Below are positions 1,122 to 45,225 of a DNA stretch of 64,000 bases, piece by piece. The notes under the pieces were generated by a model. The model was given only the letters and a program-made list of their open reading frames with translations. It had not been told where the DNA came from and made no database searches. The first letter of the stretch is position 1, and each line of letters opens with the position of its first letter. A program made the translations under genes and the position numbers. This DNA comes from a candidate division WOR-3 bacterium. Its GTDB lineage: Bacteria > Hydrothermota > Tepidihabitantia > B3-TA06. The stretch lies in NCBI GenBank assembly GCA_965649265.1, contig CBFGKC010000006.1, forward strand, positions 1 through 64,000. The letters run 5' to 3'.

Positions 1122-1187
1122 TCCTCCTTCTACAGATTATCCTGAATGTAAAATTATCCTTATTCCGTAAGCCCTTGTCAACAGCCC

Positions 1188-1486
1188 TCCTCAACCCGTA
1201 ACACACCAACTCCTTTCCCTCACCCCCTCTCGATTGAAATAATCTGCCGTGTATAGGTATAACTGAAGACAAGTGATGTGAAATGGCGGAAGCGGAGCTT
1301 GCGCCCAGCGCCTTCGTGGCGCTCGCCCGCCCTCAACCCGTAACACCCGTAACGCACCGACTCCATTCCCTCGCGCCCTCTCGATTGAAGCAATCTGCTG
1401 TGTATAGGTATAACTGAAGACGAGTGATGTGAAATGGCGAAAGCGAAGCTCACGCCCAGCGCCTTCGTGGCGCTCGCCCGCCCTCA
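1188..1486. repeat. Two tandem copies of a ~145-150 bp unit, each beginning CCTCAACCCGTAACAC
   Basis: Both copies contain CTCTCGATTGAA..AATCTGC.GTGTATAGGTATAACTGAAGAC.AGTGATGTGAAATGGCG and CCCAGCGCCTTCGTGGCGCTCGCCCGC. Confidence 0.9.
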
Positions 1487-1487
1487 A

Positions 1488-1720
1488 ACCCTCCTCAGAA
1501 AGGTTCCTCACATTTAGGGTAATCAGAATACATCCTCTCGATTAACAGGCGATGCCGAGTGGGGTGTGTTACGGGCCCTCCTCTGCAGAATTCCATTCTG
1601 CCAATGCGCCTCTGGCGCTCGCCCTCCCTCAGTAAACATTCTTACACTCATGGCATCGGAAGGAACTTTCATATTTACGAGCTATGTCGAGTGGGGGTGT
1701 GTTACGGGTGTCTTCCTCAG
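1488..1720. repeat. Two diverged copies of the CCTCAG...GTGTTACGGG dispersed element
   Basis: CCTCAG followed about 80 bp later by GAGTGGGG(G)TGTGTTACGGG, seen twice. Resembles the reverse complement of the units at 44950-45225. Confidence 0.65.
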
Positions 1721-1810
1721 CTTTGTGAAGGTTTCGATTTTCAATTTATTCTGTTGAGGTGCGGGAAGTAATCAATTTGGAAGCAGGTTTAACAGGAGGA
1801 GGGGGAGGGG

Positions 1811-2980
1811 TCAGTTGTTAGTGTCGGTCTTTCCCTGGCTCTGGCTGAAGGGGACGTAAAGGGTTGCCTGGCGCTGGCGGAGAACCTGGCCCGTCCACTG
1901 TTTCTTGTAAGCCGCTATTGCCTGCGAATCAATGGAGGTGTTGCCGGAGGATTTATAAATCGTGACTTCAACGAGCTTGCCTGTGGAGTCCACCACGACT
2001 CTCAGGGTTCCGGAGGGCTGGAACTGGCGGTCGAACACTATGGTGCCCTTCGGGTATGAGGTTTTGTCAACCGCTATCGTTGCAGCCTTTTGCGCCTCGG
2101 TGGCCGCTCCTAGAGCGGGTGTTTTGACCGCAGTGCCGCCTGTTGAGGTTTTGGTTTCCGTTTTAGCAACATTTTTGCTCTCCACGGTTCTTTTACCGTC
2201 GTCCGCGTCTTTCGCTGGTGCAGGACTTTGCTTCGTGGTAACTGCAGTAACCGAGGGTTTTGAGACCTCCTCCTCTTTTGAGGCTAGATTCTGTGTCGGT
2301 ACGGCCTTTTCTTCAGGTTTGACCGTCTCATCCTTGGCTGCCGTGACTTCAGCGGAAACCAGGCCGGAGAGTGCTTCGACTTCTTCTTCAGATGCGGCTG
2401 AGCCTGTTGCCACGATATCCTCCTGTCCCAAACCTCTTACTTGAGTTTCGTAAAGCTTGCTGTCAGCCTCTGCAAAGTCATCCTGCCGTCCTGGGGCTCC
2501 TTCCCGGCTTAGCGGTGAGGCGGGCCTTGCCATGTTCTTTCTTGAAACACCCTCATCCTGTTCGACCTTTACGGGTCCGAGCTGCTCTATCTTGCTTAAT
2601 TCTGAGAACCTGCCTGGAGCCTTTTCGAGGAGTTCGATACCTATTATTACGCCGAATACGACGGCAACTCCTGCTGAAAGATAGGGGATAAGCCTGAGTC
2701 CAAAAAGCTTGGGTCTGGAATGCCTGAGTGCAAGATGTCTTGGTTCGGAAAGCTTGTGGGATAACCTCTTCGAAAAGTTCTGCCAGTAATGCTCTCCCGG
2801 GTCGGGAATCTTTTCCGCATCGCCGTCGCGAACGAGCGCGTCCAGCGCCTTGATGCTCGAAAGCATCTTCTGGCATTCAGGGCATGATGAAAGGTGGGCT
2901 TCAAACTCTCTGCGCTTCTCGCCGTCTAACTCCCCGTCATGGTACAGGGGCACGAGCCTTTCAAAATCCTTGCAGTTCAT
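1811..2980 (-). CDS. Anti-sigma factor: zf-HC2 zinc finger, TM helix, low-complexity linker, TonB-C-like domain
   Basis: N-terminal MNC...HLSSCPEC (HxxxCxxC), one TM segment, C-terminal VVVDSTGKLVEVTIYKSSGNTSIDSQAIAA; overlaps the ECF sigma stop codon. Confidence 0.8.
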   Translation of the reverse strand: MNCKDFERLVPLYHDGELDGEKRREFEAHLSSCPECQKMLSSIKALDALVRDGDAEKIPDPGEHYWQNFSKRLSHKLSEPRHLALRHSRPKLFGLRLIPYLSAGVAVVFGVIIGIELLEKAPGRFSELSKIEQLGPVKVEQDEGVSRKNMARPASPLSREGAPGRQDDFAEADSKLYETQVRGLGQEDIVATGSAASEEEVEALSGLVSAEVTAAKDETVKPEEKAVPTQNLASKEEEVSKPSVTAVTTKQSPAPAKDADDGKRTVESKNVAKTETKTSTGGTAVKTPALGAATEAQKAATIAVDKTSYPKGTIVFDRQFQPSGTLRVVVDSTGKLVEVTIYKSSGNTSIDSQAIAAYKKQWTGQVLRQRQATLYVPFSQSQGKTDTNN

Positions 2981-3567
2981 AGGAGGTCTCCTAATTCCTC
3001 TTTAAGCGCGTTTCTTGCTCTTGCAAGTCGCGACATTACAGTACCTATCGGTAAATCGAGCACTTCGGCGATCCTTGAATAGGGCCAGTCCTCGTATACT
3101 CGAAGCACGAGAACCTGCCTCAGTTTCATCGGCAATTTTGCAATAGCGGTATGAACCTTCTTGCGGGTCTCTATCTGTTCCCTCGTGAGTTGCGGGGACG
3201 AACCGGATTCCTGGAATTCGAGATCTACGTCCGACATCTTCAGGCGGCGTTTCTTTAAGTGATTAATTGTCAGGTTGATGGCTATACGGTACATCCACGG
3301 GCCGAAGGGGTAATTCAAATCGAAGCGTCCTATAGCCTTGAAGGCGCGAATGAAAGCCTCCTGAGCCAGATCATCTGCTTCGTGATGATTCCTTACAAAC
3401 CTGTAGATCACGGTATAAACCTTCCTTTGATAGCGTTCCACGAGTTTCCCGAACGCCGCATAATCGCCATTTTTTGCGTCACATAAAAGTTCTTTCTCAT
3501 CATCGGGAGGCCCCTTGGTTTCTTCATGGGGCGCTGTCCCTTTGTCTTTTAATACAGAAAGAGGCAC
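2977..3567 (-). CDS. ECF RNA polymerase sigma factor (sigma-70 group 4)
   Basis: Region 2 ADDLAQEAFIRAF and WMYRIAIN; region 4 YSRIAEVLDLPIGTVMSRLARAR. Confidence 0.92.
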   Translation of the reverse strand: MPLSVLKDKGTAPHEETKGPPDDEKELLCDAKNGDYAAFGKLVERYQRKVYTVIYRFVRNHHEADDLAQEAFIRAFKAIGRFDLNYPFGPWMYRIAINLTINHLKKRRLKMSDVDLEFQESGSSPQLTREQIETRKKVHTAIAKLPMKLRQVLVLRVYEDWPYSRIAEVLDLPIGTVMSRLARARNALKEELGDLL

Positions 3568-3606
3568 GGATTATTCCGCAAAAGGCGCTTGCGTTCGCCG
3601 GACATC

Positions 3607-10335: not shown

Positions 10336-10679
10336 CTAGCCTCCTTGGAGACGTAATAATACTCGAATTTACCTTGCAAGTCAAGGGGTTTTTAAGCCTC
10401 GCATCTGATGGACTTCCATTGCTAACGATATCCCCGGTCTTCTCAAAGCGGACTTCTTCGATAAGCCGCTTAAATCCACAAATTGTATGTGATCGTAACG
10501 TTAACAACCTTTATACACATCTCGACTGCATCTGCGGGCTCAAAATAAATAAGGAAACCTGTTTCTTGCGTCAGAGCGGTCATTTCCGCGACGGCATTCT
10601 TAAACTTGAAAATCGCTGCTTCTTCCGAAATCACACTCAAAAAGGTACCGACAGGCTGCTTGATCATGACCGGTCTTTC

Positions 10680-10707
10680 TTGACATCCTCTTTATGTCTT
10701 ATATACT
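10680..10707 (+). promoter_or_regulatory. Sigma70-type promoter, probably leaderless
   Basis: TTGACA-N16-TATACT, 8 nt before ATG at 10716; no SD. Confidence 0.6.
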
Positions 10708-10715
10708 ACTCGTCA

Positions 10716-12585: not shown

Positions 12586-12587
12586 AG

Positions 12588-13541
12588 TTGAAAGAAAGCC
12601 TTTACGACATCGTCGTTCGTCTCAGGAGCGAGTGTCCGTGGGACGCAAAACAGACCCTTGACTCAATCCGCCACCTCTATATCGAAGAAGCCTATGAACT
12701 CTCCGAAGCGCTCGCGTCAGGCGACGGCAAAAAAATCGAAGAGGAGCTTGCCGACCTCCTCTACGTCGTCCTCATGGGCGTCCAGATAGCAAAAGACGAG
12801 GGCCTTACAACCCTCGAAAAGGTCGAAGAATCAGCCGCAACTAAGCTCATCCGCCGTCACCCGCACGTGTTCGACAAGACATCCGTATCCTCCGAAACCG
12901 AAGTCCTGCAAAACTGGGAGCGCATCAAGCAGGAGGAGAAAGAAGAAAAGGGCGAAGCCAACGGCTTCTTCTCCGGCATCCCCAAATCGCTGCCCGCTCT
13001 CATCCGTGCCCAGATGGTCCAGGAGCGCGCCGCACGGGTAGGCTTCGACTGGCCGCCCTCCCCCGTAACACACCCCGTAACACACCCCGTAACACACCCA
13101 CTCCCCCCCTCCTCCTTACCCCAAAAGAATTCGGAGAATTCTTTTGGGGACCCCACGCCCTCCTCAGAGCCCTCCTCAGAGCCCTCCTCAAAGCCCTCCC
13201 CAGAGCCTTCCTCAGAACCTTCCTTACCCATAACATACTCTTCGGCATACGGGCCGCTAGCCAAGATTCATGAAGAGGCCGACGAGCTTGCTCACAATAT
13301 CGGCTCCGGGGATAAGAAAGGACTCGAGGAGGAGCTTGGCGACCTTCTCTTCTCCGTGGTCAACCTTGCCCGCCATATCGACGTTCAGGCCGAGGAGGCG
13401 CTTGCGTCCGCAGTACTCAAATTCCAGAAACGATTCGAGGGGGTCCGCAGCCTCGCAAAGGAGCGCAACCTCGAACTGGACAAGCTTGACATCGAAGAAC
13501 TAGACAAACTCTGGGACGAGGTAAAACATACGCCCCAGTAA
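12588..13541 (+). CDS. mazG: Nucleoside triphosphate pyrophosphohydrolase MazG with a ~62-aa repeat-derived insertion
   Basis: LRSECPWDAKQT, EEAYE, EELADLL, KLIRRHPHVF, GFDW, EELGDLLFSVVNLARH. Confidence 0.93.
   Translation: MKESLYDIVVRLRSECPWDAKQTLDSIRHLYIEEAYELSEALASGDGKKIEEELADLLYVVLMGVQIAKDEGLTTLEKVEESAATKLIRRHPHVFDKTSVSSETEVLQNWERIKQEEKEEKGEANGFFSGIPKSLPALIRAQMVQERAARVGFDWPPSPVTHPVTHPVTHPLPPSSLPQKNSENSFGDPTPSSEPSSEPSSKPSPEPSSEPSLPITYSSAYGPLAKIHEEADELAHNIGSGDKKGLEEELGDLLFSVVNLARHIDVQAEEALASAVLKFQKRFEGVRSLAKERNLELDKLDIEELDKLWDEVKHTPQ
13056..13241. repeat. In-frame insertion in mazG: (CCCCGTAACACA)x3, a hairpin, and (CCCTCCTCAGAG)x5
   Basis: Read directly from the sequence; encodes PVTH x3 and PSSE-like x5. 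Confidence 0.9.
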
Positions 13542-13608
13542 AACAGCCAGCTGTTTTACTGGGGACCCCTGAATCACCCCAAAAGAAGACGGGGTCTTCT
13601 TTCTGGGG
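13533..13608. repeat. Two CCCCA...TGGGG hairpins; the first overlaps the mazG stop codon
   Basis: CCCCAGTAAAACAGC/GCTGTTTTACTGGGG and CCCCAAAAGAAGAC/GTCTTCTTTCTGGGG. Confidence 0.75.
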
Positions 13609-13730: not shown

Positions 13731-14591
13731 CTAAAGTTTTTCTTCAAGCTTCAATCCTCTGATCAATCGAGTCATGCCGATTCCGCCGCCGAAGCGCTCG
13801 ACCATCGGCAGTTCCAGAAATGCCTCAAGCTCTGCAAGCACGCGATCCTTGCCGAAATGGGCGTAGAGGAGTTCCGAGTACATCCCGTCCGAAATCGCAT
13901 GAAACCTGTCGCGCATGATGACGGGATCGGTCTCTCGCTCGGCAGAGCCTATGGTCTCTATGCCGTGAACGATCACGTCCACCTTGTTGGCAAGGTCGCC
14001 GTTGCGCCTCATGTTCCAGAACGGTGAGGTTCTTTCAGGGAAATCCTTCAGGAATGCCACGTTCCCGAAATCCCTTTCGAGCGCTTCCTCCTGATCGGCT
14101 CCGATATAATCCACCGCATACTTCCTGCATGCCGATTCGTACGTTATCGCCGGATACTTAAGGTTTTCCAAGTTGGTCGGTTCGCCTTGTCCTGCATTGC
14201 CCGATTCAAAACCCATGTGCAGGCAAAGGTCCGTCTCCAGTGCAATCAAATCATCCAGGCTTCCGCGTGACTCGAACTCGAACATCGGGAATATGAGGTC
14301 GTGCCTGTCCGGAACAGGGTTCGCTTCCTGCCGGTAGCTGGTGCTCTGGCAGAACACGCCAGGGTATTCGGGGTGTTTCAGGAGTTCGTACTCGAGCCAC
14401 ATCTGGCCGGTCTGCGGAAGCGGCCACACGGCTCCGTTGTAGTCGAACGAGCCGATGGTCGTTGGGTCTTCGCACGCGGCAAGGATGCTCAGCCGCGATT
14501 GAGTGGGCACTTCAACGAAGCCCCTGGATAAAAAAAAACCCCTCAAAGGGGTTATAGTCCGGTGGTAGTCCAATGGATCAATCAGTTTCAA
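13731..14591 (-). CDS. Class II aminoacyl-tRNA-synthetase catalytic-domain paralog (Asn/AspRS-related, archaeal-type asparagine synthetase A-like)
   Basis: Motif 1 LRGFFLSRGFVEVPT, motif 2 SYRQE...RHDLIFPMFEFE, ETIGSAERE, motif 3 GGGIGMTRL; no anticodon-binding domain; TTG start with AAGGAG RBS. Confidence 0.8.
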   Translation of the reverse strand: MKLIDPLDYHRTITPLRGFFLSRGFVEVPTQSRLSILAACEDPTTIGSFDYNGAVWPLPQTGQMWLEYELLKHPEYPGVFCQSTSYRQEANPVPDRHDLIFPMFEFESRGSLDDLIALETDLCLHMGFESGNAGQGEPTNLENLKYPAITYESACRKYAVDYIGADQEEALERDFGNVAFLKDFPERTSPFWNMRRNGDLANKVDVIVHGIETIGSAERETDPVIMRDRFHAISDGMYSELLYAHFGKDRVLAELEAFLELPMVERFGGGIGMTRLIRGLKLEEKL

Positions 14592-14695
14592 TCTGACTCC
14601 TTTTTATAGTTGTTGTGGGTTGTGCCCCGGTTTGCGTCCCGGGGGGTGTTACTTCCTTTGATTTATTGTTGCTTATGGAAGTGCCCCGAAGGGGT

Positions 14696-14730
14696 ACGGG
14701 TTGTGTTACGGGTGTTACGGGTGTTACGGG
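14696..14730. repeat. (GTGTTACGG)n short tandem repeat of the CCCGTAACAC family
   Basis: GTGTTACGGGTGTTACGGGTGTTACGGG. Confidence 0.85.
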
Positions 14731-14739
14731 TCTGACACC

Positions 14740-14772
14740 AAAAAAATAATCCCCCACGGTCATTGGGGGGAA
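14740..14772 (-). terminator. Intrinsic terminator or attenuator upstream of the AsnA-like gene
   Basis: TCCCCCCAATGACCGTGGGGGAT followed by TATTTTTTT on the minus strand. Confidence 0.65.
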
Positions 14773-14918
14773 TCTTTCATGCCTGGTCATTAAAATGGAT
14801 TATACTAAATCTTGGCATCAAAGTCAAGAAAATCATACCCTAATTCTTCCATATACCTTTGTGGAGATACATGCGAGATCTGGAGAAGCGCCAGGGGAGG
14901 TGTCCGGCCTCGCCCTCG

Positions 14919-21179: not shown

Positions 21180-21240
21180 CATTGGGCATTCCTGAATTAA
21201 TAATTTCCGTGCACTCCGAACCGGGGGTGCCGTATAAAAA

Positions 21241-21326
21241 GCTGGTCAGAAGTTGGACAAAATTAGGTAAAAAAAGCTGGACAAAAGTGGGACAAAAGAT
21301 GGTCAAAAGATGGACAAAACGGCAAA
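21241..21326. repeat. Degenerate 11-13 bp tandem repeat (TGGACAAAAG-like, about 7 units)
   Basis: GCTGGTCAGAAGTTGGACAAAATTAGGTAAAAAAAGCTGGACAAAAGTGGGACAAAAGATGGTCAAAAGATGGACAAAA. Confidence 0.7.
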
Positions 21327-22587: not shown

Positions 22588-22791
22588 ATTGTTAAGATTC
22601 TCACGGACGCTAGTGGCGTCTTCAGAATGACAAGCTCAAAATCGACCTGTCACCCTGAGGAGTAGAGGCCGGAGGCCGAAACGACGTGAGGGTCTCATCT
22701 TTCAGACACCGTAATAACACAAGAAGTCATGTGCCGGGTTTAGGCGATTGCTTCGCCCTCCCTTGGAGGACTACCCACTGTTAAAAAGGTC

Positions 22792-22853
22792 GTGTGTTAC
22801 GGGAGGTGGTGTTACAGGAGGTGATGTTGCGGGTGTTACTGAGGAGGGCGGGC
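22792..22853. repeat. Degenerate GTGTTACGGG x4 plus CTGAGGAGGG (dispersed repeat family)
   Basis: GTGTTACGGGAGGTGGTGTTACAGGAGGTGATGTTGCGGGTGTTACTGAGGAGGGCG. Confidence 0.75.
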
Positions 22854-22961
22854 TTGACACCCCCTCCCCTTCACATGAAACGATTTGCAGTTATCAATAT
22901 CCTTTTACCGTATCAAAAGGCTTAACGGTTTTTAGAGGCTAGTGTGCTTCTTGCCACGGGA

Positions 22962-24212: not shown

Positions 24213-24463
24213 CTCAATAAATCCGCTGCGCAGTTACTGCGCCGAGTCGTCATTTCATGATGCTTGGGCTGATCTAATCTTCGATTCGGGCAAGGGTTCC
24301 GACATTGACTCACCCTTTTCTCGCGCCGGTGTTTTTTAGTCTGAGTGCGTTCGTGGATTCTGAGGAGGGCGAGGAGGGCGGCGACATCGAATGTCGCTTG
24401 TCGAACTTCGTTCGACCGGAAGGTTCCTGGATATTCTTCAAATTGGGAAATGTGAAGGGTGTT

Positions 24464-24530
24464 GCTGAGGGGGGCTGAGGGGGGCTGAGGGGGGCTGAGG
24501 AGGGCTGAGGAGGGCTGAGGAGGGCGAGGA
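24464..24530. repeat. 10-bp minisatellite (GCTGAGG[G/A]GG) x6-7 abutting a stop codon
   Basis: Read directly; a related copy lies at 24360-24380. Confidence 0.9.
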
Positions 24531-25634
24531 CTATTCCTCTATCCTGACAGGGGTACCCACCCTGACCATCTGCTTGAGTTCGGTGATATCCTCGTTATGC
24601 AGGCGGATGCATCCTTCCGACGCGCGGGTGCCGATCGATGCGGGGTCGTGGGTGCCGTGAACGGCGATACCTTCCCATGCCTTGCCCGACTCGGTTTCCG
24701 TTGCCAGTGTCGAGAGCAGCAGGAACCATGGCCCGTAAGCGCCCTTTATAGGGCCCTTGCCGTCGCCGAAATCGTGCTCCCATGTGTGCGAGTCCTGGAT
24801 CGCCGTGATCGTGAAGTCTCCCAGCGGCGTGCGGCAGTCGCCTCGGCGCTCCTTGTCCCCTGCATTGCGGCCCGTGGCTATCGCGTAGGTCTTGACGAGC
24901 GCGCCTTCCTTGTATACGAAAAGCTGGAAGGTGGATTTCTTTATCACGATCGAAACCCCGCCGGGTGCGGCCTTCACCTTTGATGCCGTGATGGCATCCG
25001 TTCCCAGAACGAGAATCATGTCCGCGAGGTTCGTTCTCGTCTCTACCCGGCCGGTGCCCAGCTCGGCCACTATCTTTTCCGCGAGCGGCTTGTCCGACTT
25101 GGAACAGTAGAGTACCGTTTTCGTGAAGGTGTCGGCGTCCGCAGACTGAGGCTCGAGCGCCGATATACCGAAGCGCGCGGTGAAACGGTACGCGGCGTCA
25201 CGCGCGATTCCCGCCTTTGATGTTCCGTTCAATACCAGTATGCTGCGTCCGAAGGGCACCGAATCGAACGCGAAGGCGTTGATTCCCAGGAAAACGTGAA
25301 CGGTGCCGCGTGAATCGGTATCGGCCACGTCCGCTTCCGGGAAAACCTTTCTAAGAGCATCGAGCCAGATACGGTCCTCGGGATGTATGAAGATGCGGGA
25401 GTCCACCTTGTAAGAAAAATCGGAGTCCTTTGAACCGACCGAATCATTGAGCCCGAGCGAATCCAGAAGAATCCTGGTCTCCGGTGTCGGGTAGTTGAGA
25501 TTCCTGAGCGTCGCGTAACCCGAACATGAGTTGTGCAAAATCAGGAGCGGCTGCCGGGGTTTGCACGCCGGCATGAGAAAGATGAAAGCGAGCAAGATGA
25601 TTCCAGGGACCAGGAGGGGGACTTTTCTTTTCAT
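24531..25634 (-). CDS. L,D-transpeptidase (YkuD) lipoprotein with LytR_C-like domain
   Basis: IAVHGT...SEGCIRL catalytic motif; VLNGTSKAGIA; signal ending MPAC; start moved from 25886 to the ATG following TTGACA-N16-TAGACT. Confidence 0.88.
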   Translation of the reverse strand: MKRKVPLLVPGIILLAFIFLMPACKPRQPLLILHNSCSGYATLRNLNYPTPETRILLDSLGLNDSVGSKDSDFSYKVDSRIFIHPEDRIWLDALRKVFPEADVADTDSRGTVHVFLGINAFAFDSVPFGRSILVLNGTSKAGIARDAAYRFTARFGISALEPQSADADTFTKTVLYCSKSDKPLAEKIVAELGTGRVETRTNLADMILVLGTDAITASKVKAAPGGVSIVIKKSTFQLFVYKEGALVKTYAIATGRNAGDKERRGDCRTPLGDFTITAIQDSHTWEHDFGDGKGPIKGAYGPWFLLLSTLATETESGKAWEGIAVHGTHDPASIGTRASEGCIRLHNEDITELKQMVRVGTPVRIEE

Positions 25635-25776
25635 AATGTACAGTCTACAGCGGAGGAAGGGGATGTCAACGCAAGGGCTTGACAACGGGTTGCAATCCCT
25701 TAGACTTATAGAGTATATGTGGGAAATTGGGGTCATTGACTTGACAATTAAAAAAACCGGACTATACTCAAAGCCG

Positions 25777-26247
25777 ATGAAGATAGAGAGTAGAAAACAG
25801 GGATATGGAGTTTCCAAAAGAAGCGGAGATTCTTCGCCTCGACCTCGCGGTCGGGGATTTTTTTTGCCGAGTCGCTGGAGCTTCAAGAACGGAAAACTGT
25901 CCCTGAAGTTCTACGCGCGCACGCCCAATGACCAGTGGCGCTTCAGGCGAAGCTGGATATTCCAGAAGTTTCTCAAGCACGGACTGAAGGGTGAAAATTT
26001 AACCAACAACGCATCCTCAAAAACGAGACATGGATCGGACGCCTTCTGCAGGCATGTGCGATCCATTGCAAATCCCGAGCTCTGCTACGACAGCTTCTTT
26101 TACCTGCTGGTATCGGGGTTCGGCGGTGACGCGAATCTTTTCAAGGCAGTGCGCTATGAGAGCGCGCTGCCTTTTATTTTGACCCCGACCTTGAGTCGGG
26201 GTATTTCTTTAGCATCAGAAAACGTGATAACAAAGGAGGTTCAATGA
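25777..26247 (+). CDS. Hypothetical protein
   Basis: ATG 8 nt after TTGACA-N16-TATACT (25741-25768); stop overlaps the next ATG; no recognisable motif. Confidence 0.4.
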   Translation: MKIESRKQGYGVSKRSGDSSPRPRGRGFFLPSRWSFKNGKLSLKFYARTPNDQWRFRRSWIFQKFLKHGLKGENLTNNASSKTRHGSDAFCRHVRSIANPELCYDSFFYLLVSGFGGDANLFKAVRYESALPFILTPTLSRGISLASENVITKEVQ

Positions 26248-33312: not shown

Positions 33313-33388
33313 GGACCTTATAAGAGCCATGTATCGAGTTCACTCGACTTAAGACTCACCCCCCCGCCCTTTTCGGAAGATATTTACC

Positions 33389-33416: not shown

Positions 33417-33425
33417 TAGAGTCTT

Positions 33426-36400
33426 ATGGCAAACTTCTTAGGAAAGATTTTCGGAACAAAACAGGAACGTGAGGTCAAGAGGATGACGCCTGTTGTCGAT
33501 GAGATCAATGAGATTCTCGTTGCCCTTCATGACTACAGGTCTAACCCGGTGCCGATAACACATCTTACAGGCATGAAGGAGGACGAGGTAAGGAGCCAGG
33601 CGCATGAGTTCGAGCGCCGCTGGAACGATTTTATCAAGAACATACCTCCCGAGGACCCGGAAAGACCGAAGAAAATTCGCGAGGCGGAGGAGAAAGCGGC
33701 CGAGTGGTTTTCTGAAAATGATAAAGGCGAAGCGCCGGAGTTTGACTGGCGGGCGATATACTGGGGCATAGAGCAGGAGGTGCGGTCCGTAAATTCGTGG
33801 GCCGCAGCGGGTGACGACTGGATTTGTGAGCATCTTGAGGATACGGTCGGGAAACCTTTATATAAAGTCCTGAAAGAGGAACTCGAAAAAAAGCAAAAGG
33901 GAGCTACGAAGTTATGGCTTGAGGCAAAGAAGCAGCTTCAGGCGAGAATCCGTCCCGCGATTGTCGCCCGGACACGAGCGTGGCAGAAGAAGTTCAAAGA
34001 CTTGACTCTTTCTATCCAGGAAGAAGCAAAAAAAGTGGATGAGACAGAGCGCAAAGAATTCTGGAAGAGGCGCGCCCTGGAAACGCTCGAGCCCATAATC
34101 GTGGAGGCCTTCACGATGGTTCGCGAGGCGTGTTACCTGCTTCTCGGAAACGTCTGGAACGTTCGCGGATTCGACACGGAGTGGGACATGTTCCCCTTCA
34201 ACGTGCAGGTAATCGGCGGACTTGCCCTTCACGAGGGCAAGATAGCCGAGATGAGAACGGGCGAGGGAAAAACACTCGTGGCGACGATGCCTCTTTATCT
34301 CAACGCCCTGATGGGACGCGGCGCTCACCTCATAACCGTAAACGACTACCTCGCTGCCCGTGACCGCGAGTGGATGGGCTCCATATACGAATATCTTGGG
34401 CTTACCGTGGGCGTCATCCAAACGGGCATGAATCCTGCGGAGCGCAAGCCCATGTACGAAGCCGATATCACCTACGGGACCAACAACGAGTGCGGTTTCG
34501 ATTACCTTCGCGACAACATGGTAATATCCCTTTCCCACAAGGTTCAACGCGCTCACGCCTATGCGATAGTCGACGAGGTTGACTCGGTTCTCATAGATGA
34601 GGCAAGAACGCCTCTCATCATCTCCGGTCCAACTGAATACGTGGACAGGGGGTACGCCCGTTTCAAGCCGGGGGTCGAAAAACTCTTCCGGCTGCAGCAG
34701 GGGCTTTCCAACGAACGGGTGAGCCAGGCAGAGAAGCTCATGGAGGAGGAGAAGGATATGGAGGCGGGGCGTGTGTTGCTCATGGTTCGCCGCGCGACAC
34801 CGAAGCATAAGCGGTTGCTTCGTATAGAAAAGGAAGGCCCCATGAAGCGTCTTATAGACGACATGGAACTTGCCCTGATGCGGGACAAGAAAATGCACGA
34901 GATCGACGAGGAGAACTATTTCACTTACGACGAGCACAATCGCGCGGTCGAGCTGAACGAGAAGGGACGCGAGATATTAAATCCGCAGGATCCAGAGGCG
35001 TTTACCTTGCCTGATCTTTCGACCGGCCTCGCGGAGATTGATAAGAGGGAGGATGTGCCCGTTCAGCAGAAGCTGAAATTAAAAGAGGCGCTTTACGAAG
35101 AGCATGCGCGCAAGAGCGAGATGCTCAACAACTATCATGCGCTGCTCAAGGCCTACGTGCTCTTTAACCGCGACGAGGATTATATCGTGGACGGCGGAAA
35201 AGTAGTCATCGTCGATCCTTTTACCGGCAGGCCTCAGCCCGGCAGGCGTTACTCCGACGGTCTGCACGAGGCACTTGAAGCGAAGGAGAGCGTTCAGGTT
35301 CAGGAAGAGACCCAGACTGTGGCATCAATCACCCACCAGAATTACTTCCGCATGTACGAAAAGCTCGCCGGCATGACAGGTACGGCTCTTACCGAGGCCT
35401 CTGAGTTCTGGAATATCTACAAGCTCGAGGTTCTCGAAATTCCCACAAACAAACCGGTGCGCAGACTCGATTATCCCGACATAGTCTACAAAACAAGGGC
35501 GGAGAAATACTCGGCGGTTATCGAAGAAATAGAAACGCTGCACAAATCGGGCAGGCCCGTGCTCGTCGGCACCACGTCCGTGGACGTTTCAGAAACACTT
35601 TCCCGAATGCTCAAACGTAAGGGAATTAACCACAACGTCCTCAACGCAAAGCAGCATCAGAGAGAGGCCGAGATTGTAAAAGACGCAGGCAGGCTCAACA
35701 GCGTGACCATCGCGACCAACATGGCAGGCCGCGGAACGGACATCAAACTGACACCCGAGGTCATGGACGTTGAAACCAGATGCAAGATACAGGATGCCGA
35801 GTTTGAAACCGACATCGATCGCATGAGGCGTTCGAAGGACTGCGACGAGGAGTATCCGACGGGGCTGATCATCATCGGTACCGAGCGCCACGAATCGCGG
35901 CGAATAGACAACCAGCTTCGCGGGCGTTCGGGTCGTCAGGGGGACCCGGGGGCGTCTCAATTCTTCCTGAGTCTGGAAGATGATCTTTTAAGAATCTTCG
36001 GCGCGGACAGGATGAACCAGGTCATTGAGCGTTTCGGCGGCAAGGAGATGGAACCTGTATCCTCGCCGTTCGTCACGACCGCTATCGAGAGCGCCCAGAA
36101 GAGGGTTGAGCAGAACAACTTCGAGATTCGCAAGAGGCTCTTGGAATACGACGACGTGATGAACAAGCAGCGCGAGGAGATATATGCCACTCGTGACGAG
36201 ATTCTTGCAGGCGAAGATCTTGACGGTCTGTGCCGTTTCATTTTCGGAGAGGTGATCGAGCAGCTCGTCGCCGAAAGGTGCCAGAGCCGCAACGGAGAGG
36301 AGTGGGAGTGGGAGGGTCTCGTGTCCGATTTCGTGAGCTATTTCATGCTCGATTTCCCGGTTCCCTCGCCCGATGAGCAAGCAAGAGTTAAGCGTGATGA

Positions 36401-36899
36401 GCTTATACAGGTTCTTATCCAAAAATCCGAGGAGGCTCTTTCGCTCAGGAGAGAGACGCTTGGCGAGCAACTCTTCGCGGAGCTTCGCAACCTCGTTCTG
36501 CTCACAGTTATAGACAGGCACTGGCGCGATCACCTTTCGGAGATGGAAGATTTGAGAAAAGGAATCTCTCTGCGTGGCTACGGTCAGAAGGACCCGATCA
36601 TCGAATACAAGCGCGAAGCCTACGGCAAGTACCAGGAGATGGTTCGTTCCTTCCAGAAAGAGGTAACCAAGCTCATCTTTCGCGCGCAGTTGAGGCAGGC
36701 ACCGGTTCGCAGGCAGGCTCCGGTACACGCCTACAAGGAGGAGGCTGCCGCATCCCAGGGAGGTGGAGAAGGTCAGCCTTCACAATCGCCGCCTAAAGCC
36801 GCTCCGGCCCAGGCGCAGGCAAAGGTCGGCCGCAACGATCCTTGTCCGTGCGGTTCAGGAAAGAAATACAAGAAATGCTGCTACCCGAAATACGGTTGA
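33426..36899 (+). CDS. secA: Protein translocase subunit SecA with a large N-terminal insertion
   Basis: [50 protein letters not shown], SEC-C motif [18 protein letters not shown]. Confidence 0.97.
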   Translation: [1157 protein letters not shown]

Positions 36900-36971
36900 G
36901 GTCGGTTGTGTTAATAGCGCAGTCGCTTTCAGGGAAGTGTACACCGGAATTCACATACGAGAGGAGGTCTG

Positions 36972-39328: not shown

Positions 39329-39335
39329 AGATTCC

Positions 39336-42300
39336 TCAGAAATACATCCCCGCAGAAAGCTTGAATTCGTTGGTTAGTCCGCGCTCGTCGGGATAAAGGG
39401 TTCCGGTGTAGGAAAGACGAACCGAGAGACCTTTTGCAATTGAACGTTCGACACCTGCGTTCCACGAAGGGGTGAGTCCGAGGGGGTCTTCCTGCCCGAT
39501 GAGGTATGGAAGTTCTGTTTGCGAAATGTTCGAAAGCCGTTGGGTAAGCCTGAAGCCGGCGCTAGTGCGCCAGTCCTTGAATGTCTTTTCGGCATCTGCC
39601 GATATCCATATTCGCCTGATCTCTATTTGTCCAAGTTCCGGGTAGTAATACGGCTCCTCAGCGACGAGGTTGGCGAACCCGATCTGGGGTTCAAGCCTGA
39701 GCCACAAATCGATAACTGGTGCCAGCCACGAACTTGACTCGGTTTTGGTACGCAGCGCAAGCTCGTTGCGAGCTCTCGATTCGCTCGTGAAAGACCCAAG
39801 CAATCTCAAAAGGTACGATGGATGAACCCGTGAGCGCAGCTCCGCATCGGCCCTCCATGTTTCTTGCCGTTCGTCGGCACCTCCCCATGCCGGGAAGCGG
39901 CCGTTTCTGTACGAGGGGGAGAGTATTACGTTCAAAAGCTCATAGCCGGGCAGGAGGGTAACCCTTGAGCTTGCCGCAAACGAGTTCGAATAATATGAAT
40001 CGTTGTAATCGAGTGAAACCCATATCTTCGCCGGCGCAAGACTCATATCGGCGGCCAGGTTTGCTTTGCGCTGCGGGGCAAGGGCTGCCCCCTCCTCCTT
40101 TCTTATCTCCAGTTTGTAATCCCCTTTCTCGTCGGGTATGTATTCACCGGTCTCGGGGTCGCGTTTGTAGTCACCTGTCCCGGGGGTGACAGGAAGGTAA
40201 TATAAAACCTCTTTCTCAATACTTTGCGGATGCTGGGAAAGGTTTGCAGAGATATTTATCCTTGGCGATGGTGAATACTCAAGTCCCATATCCCCGAAGA
40301 GAAAAAACCAGCTGGTATCCGCAGGGAGATTTTTGATTGTGAACCTGTCCAGTCCTGCGGTGAGTCTTGTCTCAATTTTTTTGGCGCCGTAGTCGGCTGA
40401 AAAGAAAATGCGATCGTAATACAAGGTGTCTTGCCAGGTCTCCTGATCGTTGGCAAGGCTCTGGTCGATGCGCCTTGAACCGGTAAGCTTGATCTCGATC
40501 TCACTCAGGGGTCGCATCGCGAGACCGAGAAGCGGCTCGAAATTCTGTTTCATGTCAACCGTATCGTACCTTGCCCACGAGAAACCTGCGAGAGGAGTCC
40601 AGATTCCGAAACGAGGGTGAATACCGATCGAGGCGCGCTGCCTTGATTTAAGCCAGTCGCCCGAAAGGTCAAAAAAAGGTGCTCTTGATGACGCCCGGCC
40701 GCTGAATTCGTGCCCAGCGGTCCAAAGATGGCCTCCACCTATTCCTATGGTCAATGAGTCGAAGGGGTTTGCTTCCAGTTCGAGCAGCTGTTCATTGAAG
40801 TACGTGGGTAGCGAATCCATGTTCCACCTGTCGGCTGCCGCCGCATCCGACGTTCTCACCGGCAGGCTTACGTCTTGTGAACCGAAGCTGTGCGAGAGGT
40901 TGAGTCCGAGTTTTTCCCATTTTGCCTCCACGCCAATACGATGGGCGTGTCCGAAGACGTAGCTCGTGTCGTTGTATAAGTTCGATGTCAGTCTCGATCC
41001 GGCAGCCGACAAATCGATTCCTAACGGTCCAAAGACCTTTCTGAACGAAACACCCAGAGCCTCCTGTCTGCCGGGAAGAGTCGTAAGAATCTCGGCTTTG
41101 TAATTCCCCGCATCCGGTCCGGTGTAAATGAAGAAGCCTGAATCGGGATTAAGCACGTAGTCACCGGAAGTGGAATCGACCAGCCTGAAGCTCACGTCGT
41201 AGTCGCCCTGACCCTGGCCTGCCCATATGAAATGGTCGTCCGAAAGCAAGTAGCTGCCTGAGCCCGATCCAACGTAGACACCTCCCGGGACGACGGCCTC
41301 GGAGGAAGTCACGGTATCAAGTATCGCCTGCTGCGAATCGCTCCAGGTGTGAAAGAGATGGGTTCGGGAGTCGGCTTCCCTGTAAAAGTAAACGCCGAAA
41401 GGTCCTGCTGATACACCCAAAAGTTCGTTGTTGGCAGCGTAATCGGAGCCGGTGTAGGTATAGTCTACCTCAGCCCTCGAGCGTGAGCGAATATCTATCC
41501 TCGAATTGAAGGTGATTGCACCGGTCGAGTAATCGATCACATAATCGTTCTCCGAGCCGCGTACAAGAAGCCGCGTATCGAGCCAGATCTTTTCGGAACC
41601 CGGTACGAGCGGTTCTGCGGATTCTGCGGAACCGACAAGGTAGGGTCCGCGCTTGCCGTCAACGAGCGAAAGAATCGAATGGCCTCTTTTGGTGCCCTCT
41701 ATTCCGAATGCACCGGTGGTACTCACTGGTCCAAGAGACATTCCTGTGGATGCCCCTTTTATTCTTCTTTCCAGCAATCCGTATCCTGCGAACGGGTCCG
41801 ACAAATCAATATCTCCCAGGTTTACTTTCCAGTTTTTCTGCGAGAGCGAGACCGAGATCCGGTCAAAGTCCTCTATCCTTTCCGTGGTTCCTTCCGGAAC
41901 AAACGCACCCTGCTCGTCAGCGATATGTCCTGATACATCAACCCCGGCAAGGTTTCCGTTCATGTTTACCGAAAGCCCTTGGGAAAGATCGCTCGATCCC
42001 TTGTCGTTCAATGAGAGCGAGAGGGTTTTTGAGCCGTGAACCTCGAGCCGCTCTGCTGTCGACGCGGGCTCGAGGTTTCTTAGAGAATCCCCGGGTTCAA
42101 AGCTTGTAGTTTCTTTCGCCTCGTATAATGAATACGGCTCAATCGAATCAGCCGCAATCGTCTGATACTTCAGGATGACTTCCAGGGTTTCAGGGGGGGG
42201 AGGCGTCAGTATAAGCCTGTTAGAAACAATGCTTGCCTTTGAAGTCACGGGCGGGTCGAATATGATGCTGCCTTCCACTATCAAAGCATCGGATAAATAA

Positions 42301-42386
42301 TACTCAACCCTGCCGGGTTCAAGAACAAGGGTTTGTTCGTGAGGGACCAGAAAAGAGGAGATCAGAAACAGATACAGAGGGACCAT
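39336..42386 (-). CDS. Large hypothetical outer-membrane protein
   Basis: 1016 aa, amphipathic beta strands, C-terminal Phe; GSEKIWLD..LL.RG.ENDY.IDY..G.ITF motif. Confidence 0.75.
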   Translation of the reverse strand: MVPLYLFLISSFLVPHEQTLVLEPGRVEYYLSDALIVEGSIIFDPPVTSKASIVSNRLILTPPPPETLEVILKYQTIAADSIEPYSLYEAKETTSFEPGDSLRNLEPASTAERLEVHGSKTLSLSLNDKGSSDLSQGLSVNMNGNLAGVDVSGHIADEQGAFVPEGTTERIEDFDRISVSLSQKNWKVNLGDIDLSDPFAGYGLLERRIKGASTGMSLGPVSTTGAFGIEGTKRGHSILSLVDGKRGPYLVGSAESAEPLVPGSEKIWLDTRLLVRGSENDYVIDYSTGAITFNSRIDIRSRSRAEVDYTYTGSDYAANNELLGVSAGPFGVYFYREADSRTHLFHTWSDSQQAILDTVTSSEAVVPGGVYVGSGSGSYLLSDDHFIWAGQGQGDYDVSFRLVDSTSGDYVLNPDSGFFIYTGPDAGNYKAEILTTLPGRQEALGVSFRKVFGPLGIDLSAAGSRLTSNLYNDTSYVFGHAHRIGVEAKWEKLGLNLSHSFGSQDVSLPVRTSDAAAADRWNMDSLPTYFNEQLLELEANPFDSLTIGIGGGHLWTAGHEFSGRASSRAPFFDLSGDWLKSRQRASIGIHPRFGIWTPLAGFSWARYDTVDMKQNFEPLLGLAMRPLSEIEIKLTGSRRIDQSLANDQETWQDTLYYDRIFFSADYGAKKIETRLTAGLDRFTIKNLPADTSWFFLFGDMGLEYSPSPRINISANLSQHPQSIEKEVLYYLPVTPGTGDYKRDPETGEYIPDEKGDYKLEIRKEEGAALAPQRKANLAADMSLAPAKIWVSLDYNDSYYSNSFAASSRVTLLPGYELLNVILSPSYRNGRFPAWGGADERQETWRADAELRSRVHPSYLLRLLGSFTSESRARNELALRTKTESSSWLAPVIDLWLRLEPQIGFANLVAEEPYYYPELGQIEIRRIWISADAEKTFKDWRTSAGFRLTQRLSNISQTELPYLIGQEDPLGLTPSWNAGVERSIAKGLSVRLSYTGTLYPDERGLTNEFKLSAGMYF

Positions 42387-42994
42387 TACCTTACTATCAG
42401 GATATGGGTAGGATCGGCAAGGTAGTAAACCAGCTTGTCCGTTATCGCCATCTGGTTTGTAAGATAAGCGATGGTTTCAGTTGTAAGGCCGAGACTTGAA
42501 AGCTCGTGATTCACCGTCGAATCCATCGGAAGCGGTTCGTTTTTTTGCAGGTAATAGATGCTGTCCGCGATGCACCATATAGAAAGCGGCGCTCTCGATA
42601 TGCTTCTTTCCTCAAGAATACTTCCCAGAGGGGAAAGCCGTCTTAATGTAAAGTCTGAAAGAACCCATAACTCACCGGAAGTCGTTAACGCAGCGTCGTC
42701 CGCATCATTGGCAACCGCTCCTCCTATCGCTTTCCTGAGATCGTAAAGCATCAGTTTTCTGCCTCTTAGCACGTAAAGCAGTTCGTCAAAATAAAGCAAG
42801 CGTTGAGCACCGCTTATTCTCTCCGGAAGCGAATAATTTGTCCACTCATCGTTGTCTTCAAGCACGAAAACTTCGTCTCCTGCTCGTGAAAGGAAAACCA
42901 GTCGCGAGTCTGGAGAGGCCGCCAGGGCTTTTGCAGGCTGTGGAAGTTGTAATGTGTCCACCCTTCCTATGAACAAGGCAAGAAAAAAGATCAC
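42386..42994 (-). CDS. Hypothetical secreted beta-propeller-like protein
   Basis: Hydrophobic N-terminus; GTG 6 nt after TTGACT-N16-TATCCT; TAATG overlap with the next gene. Confidence 0.65.
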   Translation of the reverse strand: MIFFLALFIGRVDTLQLPQPAKALAASPDSRLVFLSRAGDEVFVLEDNDEWTNYSLPERISGAQRLLYFDELLYVLRGRKLMLYDLRKAIGGAVANDADDAALTTSGELWVLSDFTLRRLSPLGSILEERSISRAPLSIWCIADSIYYLQKNEPLPMDSTVNHELSSLGLTTETIAYLTNQMAITDKLVYYLADPTHILIVR

Positions 42995-43096
42995 AGCCTA
43001 AGGATAACCGTCACATCCCGGTAGTCAAGCCCAGGATTAAACTTTTTGTCCCCTTCGTTGTCAATAAATAGTGATGAACAAGAAAAGGAGTAATTC

Positions 43097-43564
43097 ATGC
43101 TAAAGTTAGCAACAATACCTTTGATTCTGGCCGCTTTCTTCGCCGCGCCGGGATCGCACGACGCCGCACGCTCCCGCGGGCCACATTCCGGCATGTTTCT
43201 TTCTCCACAAGCAATTCAAGAATTGGCACTTACCGACGAACAAATATCCAAGATCAAGGATCTCAAGGATACTCGCATGGATAAGACGCTCGAAATAAGA
43301 CAGAAGATGGAGAAGTCGCGGCTTGAGCTTGCCAAGCTTACCGATGACAATGAACCGAACCAGACAAAAATCGAAACAAAGATTCGCGAGATAGGCAACC
43401 TTAAAACCGAAATGGAACTAGAGCGGATCAATTTCTTCTTTCAGGTTCGTAAGCTGCTTACCCCTGAGCAGATAGAAAAACTCGGAACTATTCATGCGTT
43501 CGGCAGAAATCCCGGCGGCCGTTCGGAAAGACCATGCCGTGACGCAGGACCCGACCACGATTAA
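43097..43564 (+). CDS. Spy/CpxP-family periplasmic chaperone or metal sensor
   Basis: Signal peptide; LALTDEQ and LLTPEQ (LTxxQ motifs). Confidence 0.82.
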   Translation: MLKLATIPLILAAFFAAPGSHDAARSRGPHSGMFLSPQAIQELALTDEQISKIKDLKDTRMDKTLEIRQKMEKSRLELAKLTDDNEPNQTKIETKIREIGNLKTEMELERINFFFQVRKLLTPEQIEKLGTIHAFGRNPGGRSERPCRDAGPDHD

Positions 43565-43646
43565 CAAGATGAAATTCCCTGACAAATCCCCTGACGGAGA
43601 AAAAAACCTGCCTCCATTGGGGATATCAAAACCCCATGGTGTAACA

Positions 43647-43674
43647 AAGGTGGCCGGTTCGACTCGGCCACCTT
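43647..43674. terminator. Stem-loop between the two Spy/CpxP genes
   Basis: AAGGTGGCCG...CGGCCACCTT. Confidence 0.45.
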
Positions 43675-43747
43675 GCCATCACCTGAAAAAATACTATAAT
43701 TTAGATATGAATTTTTTAGAAAACCAAACTGTGAAAAAGGAGTACGC

Positions 43748-44266
43748 ATGTTGAACATCGCGACGACGGCTTTACTTGCCCTTTCCCTTGTGGGAGCTCA
43801 GGGTGAAGGATGCCCTATGATGGGTGGAGGGATGATGGAAGGAACCATGATGGCGGGCGGGATGATGAGTCTGCCCATGATTCTCGATAATCCCGAGATG
43901 ACAAAAACCCTTAACCTTACCGAAGATCAGCAGAAGAAGCTCAAGGATCTGCGTTATTCACACCAGGATAAGGTTCTCGAAATCAAGCAGAAACTCGAGC
44001 GCGAGGAACTCGCTTTAAGAAAACTCATGGATGCCGACACCCCGGATAAGGCGCAAATAGAAGCCAAGATAAAGGTTATAGGTAGTCTTCGTACTGATAT
44101 GGAACTCGCTCGCATAGGGATGTTCTTCGATATCCAGAAGATACTTACCGCCGATCAGTTGAAGCAGCTCAAATCCATGCGCGGCGCCGGAAGCCATATG
44201 GGTATGGGTAATCCCAAGGCTCCCGGTCCATCAGATCAGGACATGCCCGGTATGCAGCACGAATAA
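43748..44266 (+). CDS. Spy/CpxP-family protein with Met-rich N-terminus
   Basis: CPMMGGGMMEGTMMAGGMM; LNLTEDQ and ILTADQ. Confidence 0.85.
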   Translation: MLNIATTALLALSLVGAQGEGCPMMGGGMMEGTMMAGGMMSLPMILDNPEMTKTLNLTEDQQKKLKDLRYSHQDKVLEIKQKLEREELALRKLMDADTPDKAQIEAKIKVIGSLRTDMELARIGMFFDIQKILTADQLKQLKSMRGAGSHMGMGNPKAPGPSDQDMPGMQHE

Positions 44267-44418
44267 AGGGCTTGACTAACTCCTCGAAAAGGATTAATAT
44301 GGCCGGAAGAGATTCCGGCCATAACCTTTTTTAATGTCCGGATTCTTACCTGCCTCATCGAGGCATGGGTTGCAATTCGTTGGAATGAAAAGTCGTTTTA
44401 GTCATTCAAGGAGGAGAA

Positions 44419-44952
44419 ATGAAACGCATGATATCCGTCTTTGTACTCTTGATAGCGCTCTCGTCATCAGCCCTGGCTGCTGCGGCTCCGAAAGCCCCTG
44501 GGAAGGTGTATCCGATGATGATGGGCCCAAAGATCTCGACCACCGTTCTTCCCATAAGCGGCCTGCTGAATCCCCTGAACGTTTCGGGTGAAATGCTAAT
44601 AAATCTCTACCGCAACGTATTATGGCTCAGAACCGACCTTCTTTCCCTTTCGATCCGTGACAGTGCCAACAATCTGGGTATCAATCTCGGTTCACCGTTC
44701 GATATCGTATTTATGGGCTACTACAAGGGCGTCCGGCCTTACGGCTTCGGCGGGTTCGGTATATACGTCAATTCGTTTGGAGAGAATACAAACTACTGGA
44801 CTGGTGTCGATCTCGGCGGCGGGGCTTCCTACGAGGTCTCGCGCGGGCTCCATCTCTTTGGCGAGCTTGGCGGAAGATTGGGATATAACGGTTCGAATCT
44901 CGATTACGGAATATTCCTCGGAGCGGGTGCTAGGTTCGCGTTCGTCTGGTAA
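44419..44952 (+). CDS. Small outer-membrane beta-barrel protein
   Basis: Signal peptide, RPYGFGGFG, C-terminal GAGARFAFVW. Confidence 0.75.
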   Translation: MKRMISVFVLLIALSSSALAAAAPKAPGKVYPMMMGPKISTTVLPISGLLNPLNVSGEMLINLYRNVLWLRTDLLSLSIRDSANNLGINLGSPFDIVFMGYYKGVRPYGFGGFGIYVNSFGENTNYWTGVDLGGGASYEVSRGLHLFGELGGRLGYNGSNLDYGIFLGAGARFAFVW

Positions 44953-45225
44953 CCCGTAACACACCCGTAACACCCGTAACACGCCACATTTCCCACTAGT
45001 CCGTAAATTAAGAGAATAGTATTCAGATTCTCATAATTGAGTGAGGTGACGTCTGGGAATGTTTCTGAGGGGGGCCGTAACACACCCGTAACACCCGTAA
45101 CACGCCACTTTTCCCTCTAGTACGTAAAATAAGAGGATGGTTTTCAGACTCTTTTAATGAGTGAGTTGACGCCTGAGTATGTTTCTGAGGGGGGCCCCGT
45201 AACACTCCACCCCCCGTAACACTCG
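44950..45225. repeat. Array of ~122-bp units delimited by CCCGTAACAC clusters and CTGAGGGGGG
   Basis: Two diverged full units plus a third CCCGTAACAC cluster; begins at the upstream TAA stop codon. Confidence 0.88.

Follow-up and report, generated by a model that had tools for sequence, protein, structure and literature searches.

A 10-nt motif, A (CCCGTAACAC), recurs in short head-to-tail arrays along 64,000 nt of a candidate division WOR-3 chromosome (assembly GCA_965649265.1, contig CBFGKC010000006.1, positions 1 to 64,000; hereafter the window), and it is common to at least five genomes, this one included. The reading that we favour, at somewhat less than even confidence, is that small, non-autonomous mosaic repeats make up a family spread across the Stahlbacteria/WOR-3 lineage, with the A unit as its core; the family would expand by slippage and survive where it does no harm, and the unit is probably also the target of the mosaic. 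Genome-specific passenger modules lie nested between the units: arrays of a second motif, B (CCCTCCTCAG), a palindromic hairpin and units of 121 and 151 bp in the window, and a two-hairpin module of 75 nt in one relative.

Decamer arrays in the window and in related genomes

With up to one mismatch allowed, A has 25 matches in the window, 18 of them exact, against a mean of 2.58 and a maximum of 7 in 100 shuffles, and base composition leads one to expect only 0.13 exact copies. It is the top 8-, 9- and 10-mer of the window, and its density in this stretch, which was not selected for A, is 0.28 exact copies per kb. At the same tolerance B has 23 matches (8 exact; shuffles, mean 5.04 and maximum 14). 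Counts so far above both shuffles and compositional expectation rule out a chance origin of the repeats. On the same strand both motifs are C-rich and G-poor, with C to G counted from the sequence at 5:1 in A and 6:1 in B. The A unit differs from its own reverse complement and thus is not the imperfect palindrome of 20-40 nt that characterizes REP and REPIN-RAYT units.

The preliminary description of the window had listed six clusters of non-palindromic repeats in both orientations, variable in unit length and copy number, together with two joined strings starting at 1562 and 45065, and had seen no transposase. All six clusters are present where they were placed, both starts are correct, and the remaining points were borne out. 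Domains of transposases, HUH nucleases or reverse transcriptases were absent from the 57 open reading frames (ORFs) of the window scanned at E ≤ 1e-5 and from its 14 unexplained ORFs even at E ≤ 1. Two composite repeat regions had no match in phage and plasmid collections, and against known RNA families the window returned only two tRNAs at gathering score. A bias between replichores, also raised earlier, was not seen in the window, where units number 6 versus 5 on the left and 2 versus 8 on the right with no consistent sign, a count of only 21 units around an origin near 21 kb that is itself only a candidate.

One genome per species was scanned for two A units 0-3 nt apart, giving at least 63 loci. 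At least 42 of these come from four genomes with a GC content of 41-54%, three labelled Candidatus Stahlbacteria (WOR-3) and one relative, and at least 21 more are lone pairs of units from unrelated genomes. No overlap with the window was seen among the 63 loci listed, the sole match being a 49-nt array hit. The MazG protein encoded in the window is closest to proteins named candidate division WOR-3, which suggests that the window belongs to a relative of the four genomes. Between two of the species there are four matching locus pairs at 80-89% nucleotide identity, and in these all 7 of 7 arrays are present in both, differing only in copy number. An assembly artefact is very unlikely because four further, independent assemblies contain the same arrays, two species have them at matching positions, and proteins of independent origin show them translated in frame.

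The two motifs do not travel together. Exact B occurs 8 times in the window versus 2 times in ~193 kb from the other four genomes, and the hairpin arm of the MazG type was found only in the window in the same comparison. The earlier proposal of a single A/B family was accordingly rejected: amplification of B and of the hairpin is limited to the window genome, so that A and B must be treated as separate. Judged from this distribution, A is the conserved core and B a local passenger, which on the reading we favour would lie outside that core.

Array anatomy was assessed in a pooled sample of the window and the 42 loci, holding 85 arrays of 1-7 units (64 of them with at least two), with ORFs called mechanically. 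Units are spaced 9-13 nt without preference for a helical phase, and the spacer bases vary between perfect cores, as at locus L004. Over the five genomes, A cores number 167 exact and 57 with one mismatch, where ~0.5 and 15.5 are expected. On the C-rich strand, decayed units lie more often on the 3' side than on the 5' side (36 versus 18 in 62 arrays), and an excess of C persists for 40 nt past the arrays (789 C versus 481 G). Most arrays are one-sided; inverted arrays surround a hairpin core at two loci (L001 and L013), and CCCGTA...TACGGG surrounds the MazG insert of the window. CRISPR arrays, with repeats of 24-48 nt and unique spacers of similar length, look different from these units of 9-13 nt, which follow each other at 0-3 nt.

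Insertions in genes and the 75-nt module

The clearest evidence of insertion comes from a metallophosphoesterase of JAUVJT, which has 240 amino acids (aa) versus 209 aa in its nearest homolog. The two align with one 31-aa gap and are otherwise identical at 199 of 209 positions (95%). Among the other 21 homologs (E ≤ 1e-69) 19 have 209 aa, and none reaches 240 aa, the lengths being 208, 209 or 226 aa. The corresponding 93-nt insert consists of the 75-nt two-hairpin module plus two A units, is ~93% identical to other module copies in an alignment read by eye, and is flanked by TTACGGAGGG and TTACGGGGGG. The left resident sequence, TTACGGAGGG, is itself unit-like, agreeing with the insert's final 10 nt at 9 of 10 positions. 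The direct repeat at this site is therefore 10 nt long, imperfect, and the unit core itself, with the empty allele known from protein. The suggestion in the preliminary description that the element is non-autonomous and mobile fits this filled/empty pair.

Besides the phosphoesterase, the 75-nt module is present at no fewer than six loci; its copies include those at L015, L035, L003, L037, L041, L056 and L050, and a partial copy is found in the window. Its order is a hairpin with a tetraloop-type loop, ATTTTCACTATA, a second hairpin, and AAGGACATAACACC. The two halves of an A unit, CCCGTA(C) and (A)TAACACC, bracket 6 of the 8 aligned copies; the module's own terminal symmetry is at best 4-5 nt. 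Two compensatory pairs were counted among the 10 predicted pairs of its hairpins in six sequences. No Rfam family was found, and four module loci searched at E ≤ 1 gave only two weak hits to snoRNA models, both lying outside the module. On these features the module could be a small mobile module or a structured RNA.

Coding arrays keep the reading frame. Multiples of 3 account for 38 of 38 unit spacings in a coding set picked by ORF and domain context, versus 39 of 101 in non-coding arrays (Fisher p = 7e-13). The cluster at 13056-13241, one of the six listed earlier, is coding and not intergenic: it is an in-frame 62-codon insertion in the MazG gene. It begins with three A units of period 12 (read as PVTH), continues with a palindromic hairpin at 13119-13149 and 5.7 B units of period 12 (PSSE), and ends in a degenerate A unit at 13226-13237. 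Inserts of 24-62 aa occupy the same site in 7 of 21 aligned homologs and are missing from 14; one of the inserted homologs reads (PVTHL)n, and the translated hairpin is kept in three. A tree of the homologs, the best version of which needs three changes, is compatible with a single origin of the MazG insert and with several. ApbE offers a parallel, with VLR-type repeats, (VLR)n, at one site in 8 of 15 aligned homologs (alignment read by eye), and in three ApbE proteins that are 87-91% identical the repeat site differs by multiples of 4 aa. The "self-expanding" character proposed earlier fits these copy-number differences at fixed sites in MazG, in ApbE and at the matching loci.

Tail, linker and loop regions with further arrays were recognized by domain scans in RsmF, a nitroreductase, a Na/Ca exchanger, V-ATPase B, M48 and M28 peptidases, RuvX and cyclophilin, besides ApbE and the metallophosphoesterase. 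Coding inserts measure 21-186 nt, lengthen the proteins by 7-62 residues relative to homologs, and yield PVTH, RNT, VLR or CYG according to the frame and strand in which they are read; the sense strand is C-rich in ~10-11 genes and G-rich in 5 (one case judged by eye).

Two side observations concern coding arrays. In two genomes RsmF is divided at the same point into one ORF for the methyltransferase and one for the PUA domain (80% and 63% aa identity; L005 2119-3474 with 1652-2128, and L012 1620-2570 with 1123-1647), with an A array at the junction, and in one of the two the first ORF ends on the TAA of the unit. A 496-aa ORF (L003 1958-3448, - strand), with no Pfam match, contains an A array read as (V/G)CYG; the sequence downstream looks terminase-like by eye only, and if that is right, the repeat also enters prophage genes.

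Oriented contacts and competing explanations

Outside proteins, the arrays keep a definite orientation towards gene edges. In 16 of 85 arrays the G-rich strand reaches a TTGACA-type hexamer within 14 nt, followed by a -10 box 16-18 nt further on; on the opposite side a full -35/-10 promoter is found in 1 of 85, and random positions give 507 of 85,875 (0.6%). When one member of each matching locus pair was removed, 12 of 78 arrays still had the hexamer within 16 nt. Between the last full unit and the -35 box lie 0 to 13 nt, without fixed register. At the other end of genes, 11 arrays whose C-rich strand is sense begin no more than 20 nt past a stop codon, against 0 arrays oriented the other way; in 4 of the 11 the TAA of the unit is the stop codon. 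Window examples of stop-adjacent arrays are at 44953 (A) and 24530 (B). The arrays are also nearer to the gene on the 5' side of the C-rich strand (median 59.5 versus 144.5 nt, p = 1.5e-4).

Two simple accounts of the promoter contact were tried and rejected. A regulon is ruled out by the 14 genes behind array-bearing promoters, which are functionally unrelated (TrkH, MarR-type and Crp-type regulators, GlmM, PBP1A, SufS and others). A general promoter element is ruled out by the ~48 of 63 promoter-like sites that, read by eye, have no array; the bases upstream of these sites have no common pattern, although three CAZUXE sites end in (T)ACGG (by eye). A separate observation on promoter-like sites is that a start codon follows the -10 box by 4-10 nt in, by our own count, ~28 of 63, for example at L015 2609-2640, L043, L035 and L006, which suggests that leaderless mRNAs are frequent in the lineage and include those of many genes behind array-bearing promoters.

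On the mosaic-repeat reading, at least one array-plus-module piece would have been copied into a unit-like site, leaving the unit core as an imperfect 10-nt direct repeat. Arrays gain and lose whole units at fixed sites, and would do so by slippage. Spread would proceed through a sequence-specific factor (a recombinase or nuclease) encoded elsewhere, or through homology-guided copying; spread of this kind would preserve an exact 10-nt core and let the spacers diverge. Copies would then persist only in harmless places, such as the outer edge of -35 boxes, stop codons, and in-frame linkers, tails and loops. At stop codons the unit's own TAA can presumably act as the stop, and the 11 to 0 orientation there may arise because the unit has TAA on its C-rich strand only. 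Both anchors could thus follow from tolerance combined with target preference.

Several points weigh against this reading. The 42 loci were picked for two adjacent units, and there is only one clean filled/empty pair. The array ends are non-canonical, having no clear terminal inverted repeats, and the supposed duplication is the unit itself. Since all seven arrays of the matching loci were kept in both species, mobility must be low on that time scale. The great excess of exact over decayed units is as compatible with host-factor selection as with a selfish element. The oriented contact at -35 boxes (16 versus 1) and stop codons (11 versus 0) is explained only by inference, and no 4-mer enrichment pointed to a TTGAC-like insertion target beside non-promoter arrays; candidate cases of such a target at L003, L041, L056 and window position 14731 were dismissed as anecdotal. 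Finally, a core that stays exact across species requires a sequence-specific partner, and no cognate enzyme for the arrays was identified in the 64-kb window, to which the search was confined. A host DNA-binding factor acting at gene edges is therefore a serious rival.

According to that rival, which we consider unlikely but hold to be the strongest of the alternatives, the arrays are iterated sites for a lineage-conserved DNA-binding protein at gene boundaries, with the role of an upstream promoter element, of an activator site, or of a polar insulator or terminator that stops RNA polymerase at promoter edges and gene ends, with the coding copies as by-products of turnover. It would account directly for the -35 contact (16/85 versus 1/85, and 507/85,875 at random), the one-sided stop-codon contact (11 versus 0) and the nearness to genes on the C-strand 5' side (59.5 versus 144.5 nt), as well as for the exact core across genomes of 41-54% GC with varying spacers and for array positions kept between two species. 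It expects the carrier organisms to have a protein with specific affinity for (GTGTTACGGG)n, and no binding protein is known. The variable 0-13 nt between last unit and -35 box and the 9-13 nt spacing without helical phase are difficult to reconcile with it, as are the lack of a regulon, the ~48 of 63 array-less promoter-like sites (by eye) and the insertions inside conserved enzymes in both orientations. A more specific proposal, which we regard as improbable, is that the outer edges of Stahlbacteria genes are marked by decamer arrays bound by a sequence-specific, orientation-dependent factor that stops or shields RNA polymerase, while coding and mosaic copies would arise as side products of turnover; it would be a bacterial counterpart of eukaryotic TTF-I/Reb1 or mitochondrial mTERF with their polar terminator and promoter-proximal sites.

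The Rho-type, uptake-signal and quadruplex readings are weaker than the host-factor rival. The transcribed C-rich strand might act at the RNA level by loading Rho in the manner of a rut site or by recruiting an RNA-binding protein, and so end transcripts on their way out of a gene; the C-rich, G-poor composition of A and B on the same strand (5:1 and 6:1), the C-rich sense of every stop-adjacent array (11 versus 0), the C excess for 40 nt past arrays (789 versus 481) and the commoner C-rich sense in transcribed contexts (~10-11 genes versus 5) are all in its favour. However, arrays within operons are translated as N-terminal or linker segments, many arrays have just 2-3 units, and those on the promoter side would be transcribed in the C-rich sense only by hypothetical divergent transcripts. 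To our knowledge Rho does not require an exact 10-mer, which would leave the cross-species conservation of the core unexplained, and we hold this account to be quite improbable. Very improbable, in our estimation, is that A is a signal of the DNA-uptake type which accumulates by biased uptake and recombination, as in Neisseria and Pasteurellaceae. The density of 0.28 exact copies per kb in an unselected window would suit such a signal, as would its sharing among related species, its occurrence in both orientations, at gene ends and in tolerant parts of proteins, and the lack of a transposase nearby; known uptake sequences are tolerated in poorly conserved protein positions (PMC2817400). Yet the coding copies are lengthening insertions and not substitutions, the copies are tandem, a strict orientation towards -35 boxes is not predicted, and no competence genes were seen in the window. 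That the arrays act through G-quadruplex or i-motif structure instead of sequence we find barely credible: arrays of period 9 or 10 do read GGG-N6-GGG on the G-rich strand, but the canonical four-run motif (G3 runs, loops of 1-7 nt) occurs in just 13 of the 64 arrays with at least two units, and the mismatch profile indicates that the loop sequence is as strictly conserved as the G runs.

Window features and relation to known repeats

The window is a segment of bacterial chromosome of ~53% GC, with genes for an ECF sigma/anti-sigma pair, lysine biosynthesis, the pst operon, SecA, GrpE/DnaK and an [FeFe] hydrogenase with its maturases. Its repeat features are collected in Table 1.

Table 1. Repeat features of the window, with Tandem Repeats Finder (TRF) calls and surroundings.
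Position	Strand	Feature	TRF	Surroundings
1176..1204	-	A unit 1195-1204, then B-like unit 1185-1194, running into -35 box TTGACA 1181-1176		Promoter (-35, 17 nt, GATAAT; 11/12 consensus positions) predicted for small membrane-protein gene 1121..735
1194..1490	+	151-bp unit in two tandem copies, 90% identical; each copy with A unit(s) at start, then cap ACCnACTCC	Period 151, 1.9 copies, 1194-1487	Repeat families D5, D6, D16
1562..1720	+	Opposite orientation: lone A units at 1566-1575 and at 1699-1708, a B-like unit after each		
13056..13241	+	In-frame 62-codon insertion	Period 12, 13061-13099 and 13157-13224	MazG gene (ORF 12588-13541)
13577..13607	+	Second hairpin copy, CCCCAAAAGAA...TTCTTTTGGGG-type		Directly past MazG stop codon; repeat I9
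14592..14740	-	A x3, period 9, 14703-14730; hairpin-containing stretch follows on - strand, its start resembling the relatives' 75-nt module (partial copy 14592-14703, -)	Period 9, 14703-14731	Upstream of EpmA-like gene 14591..13731; preceded by a promoter-like site and by a terminator-like hairpin
22787..22859	+	Degenerating A units plus a single B unit (G-rich strand: +) that lead into TTGACA 22854-22859		No -10 box found after the TTGACA
24358..24530	-	B arrays, C-rich on -: 24464-24530, period 10, x6.8; 24358-24384, x2	Period 10, 24464-24530	Begin right after stop codon of L,D-transpeptidase gene 25886..24531
44950..45225	+	A x3, 91-nt spacer, inverted B' + A x3, second spacer, inverted B' + A x2	121-bp unit, 2.1 copies, 44953-45205	First array starts at stop codon of lipoprotein-like gene 44419..44952 (GGTAA-CCCGTAACAC)

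Some further observations adjoin these features. At 14741-14827 (- strand) a near-consensus promoter (TTGACT, 17 nt, TATAAT) precedes by ~25 nt a hairpin that resembles a terminator and has a run of T; the pair lies upstream of the A array and the EpmA-like gene and might represent a leader or attenuator, or give a very short transcript. Directly past the A/B mosaic, at 45238-45315, a 39-nt unit stands in two tandem copies that are 90% identical, each with the hairpin GAGATGAGTCTTCATCTC. At 21237-21319 lies an 11-nt tandem array, AAAAGnTGG(A/T)C, of ~7 units, whose reverse complement resembles the DnaA box consensus. It is situated at the cumulative G-C minimum (~20 kb) and adjoins the switch from - to + strand genes (22.5-23.2 kb); neither dnaA nor dnaN is in the window. 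The same 11-mer array follows an A array in a JAUVJT locus (L053 2432-2475 and 2536-2568), and the window array is a candidate replication-origin or iteron cluster. SecA (33426-36899) is unusually long at 1157 aa, with an N-terminal extension of ~160 aa and a large insertion in its DEAD-like domain; it has no array-derived low-complexity segment, and neither extension nor insertion is repeat-derived. Lastly, an ORF of 1016 aa (39336-42386, -) and an adjacent one of 202 aa (42386-42994, -) have no Pfam match at E ≤ 1.

The arrays share all the defining features of none of the families with which we compared them. Rickettsia palindromic elements (RPEs) are short, have no transposase of their own, and are found in frame and translated in unrelated housekeeping genes (PMC10969869). 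The arrays likewise stand in frame in unrelated conserved genes (MazG, metallophosphoesterase, ApbE, nitroreductase and others). In contrast to RPEs, which measure ~150 bp (palindromes of ~100-150 bp) and encode a conserved peptide, they consist of a non-palindromic 10-nt unit in variable tandem copies, are read in several frames and both orientations, and are mostly intergenic. [quoted passage not shown] One filled/empty pair and the frequent -35 contact recall them, but the arrays lack long terminal inverted repeats and a fixed length, their flanking direct repeat is the 10-nt unit itself and not the TA duplication of a MITE, and they lie outside the -35 box and do not supply it.

In the dRS3-flanked mosaics of Neisseria and the BIME/REP elements of E. 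coli a short repeat serves as scaffold and as a presumed target of recombination. The nesting of the 121-/151-bp units and the 75-nt module between A units is similar; unlike dRS3 and REP, with their dyad symmetry, the A unit has none, and the core as a rule stands in tandem, head to tail. The arrays showed no link to an integrase, a RAYT or a phage. DNA uptake sequences (DUS) and uptake signal sequences (USS) resemble A as motifs of 9-12 nt that occur at very high density in the genome and are common to relatives (PMC2817400), but they stand as single dispersed copies that arise by substitution and leave protein length unchanged, whereas A units are tandem, insertional and oriented to -35 boxes and stop codons. 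We know of no such oriented anchors for REP, MITEs or uptake sequences. In minisatellite-like variable-number tandem repeats, such as the mycobacterial interspersed repetitive units, and in repeat-based phase variation each locus has its own unit. The arrays behave similarly, since at fixed loci, in gene junctions and upstream of promoters, their copy number changes in steps of a whole unit, and they differ in that one exact 10-mer is used across scores of loci in at least five genomes.

The tandem A motif was not found in the literature searched, which did not extend to subscription journals. Among the papers listed for Stahlbacteria or WOR-3 none concerned repeats, judged by title, and strings of a single unit appeared, among the matches listed and again by title, in primer-type contexts. 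From the way the arrays behave, they look like a small self-copying DNA mosaic, undescribed so far. They would represent a new type of bacterial interspersed repeat, a non-palindromic 10-mer in tandem arrays spread across an uncultured phylum-level lineage, and A arrays could help to bin WOR-3 genomes and to type their strains. A trans-acting factor, if there is one, would be a new site-specific recombination activity or a new gene-boundary factor. The coding copies provide a natural example of how repeat DNA comes to be written into conserved enzymes, where it forms variable linkers.

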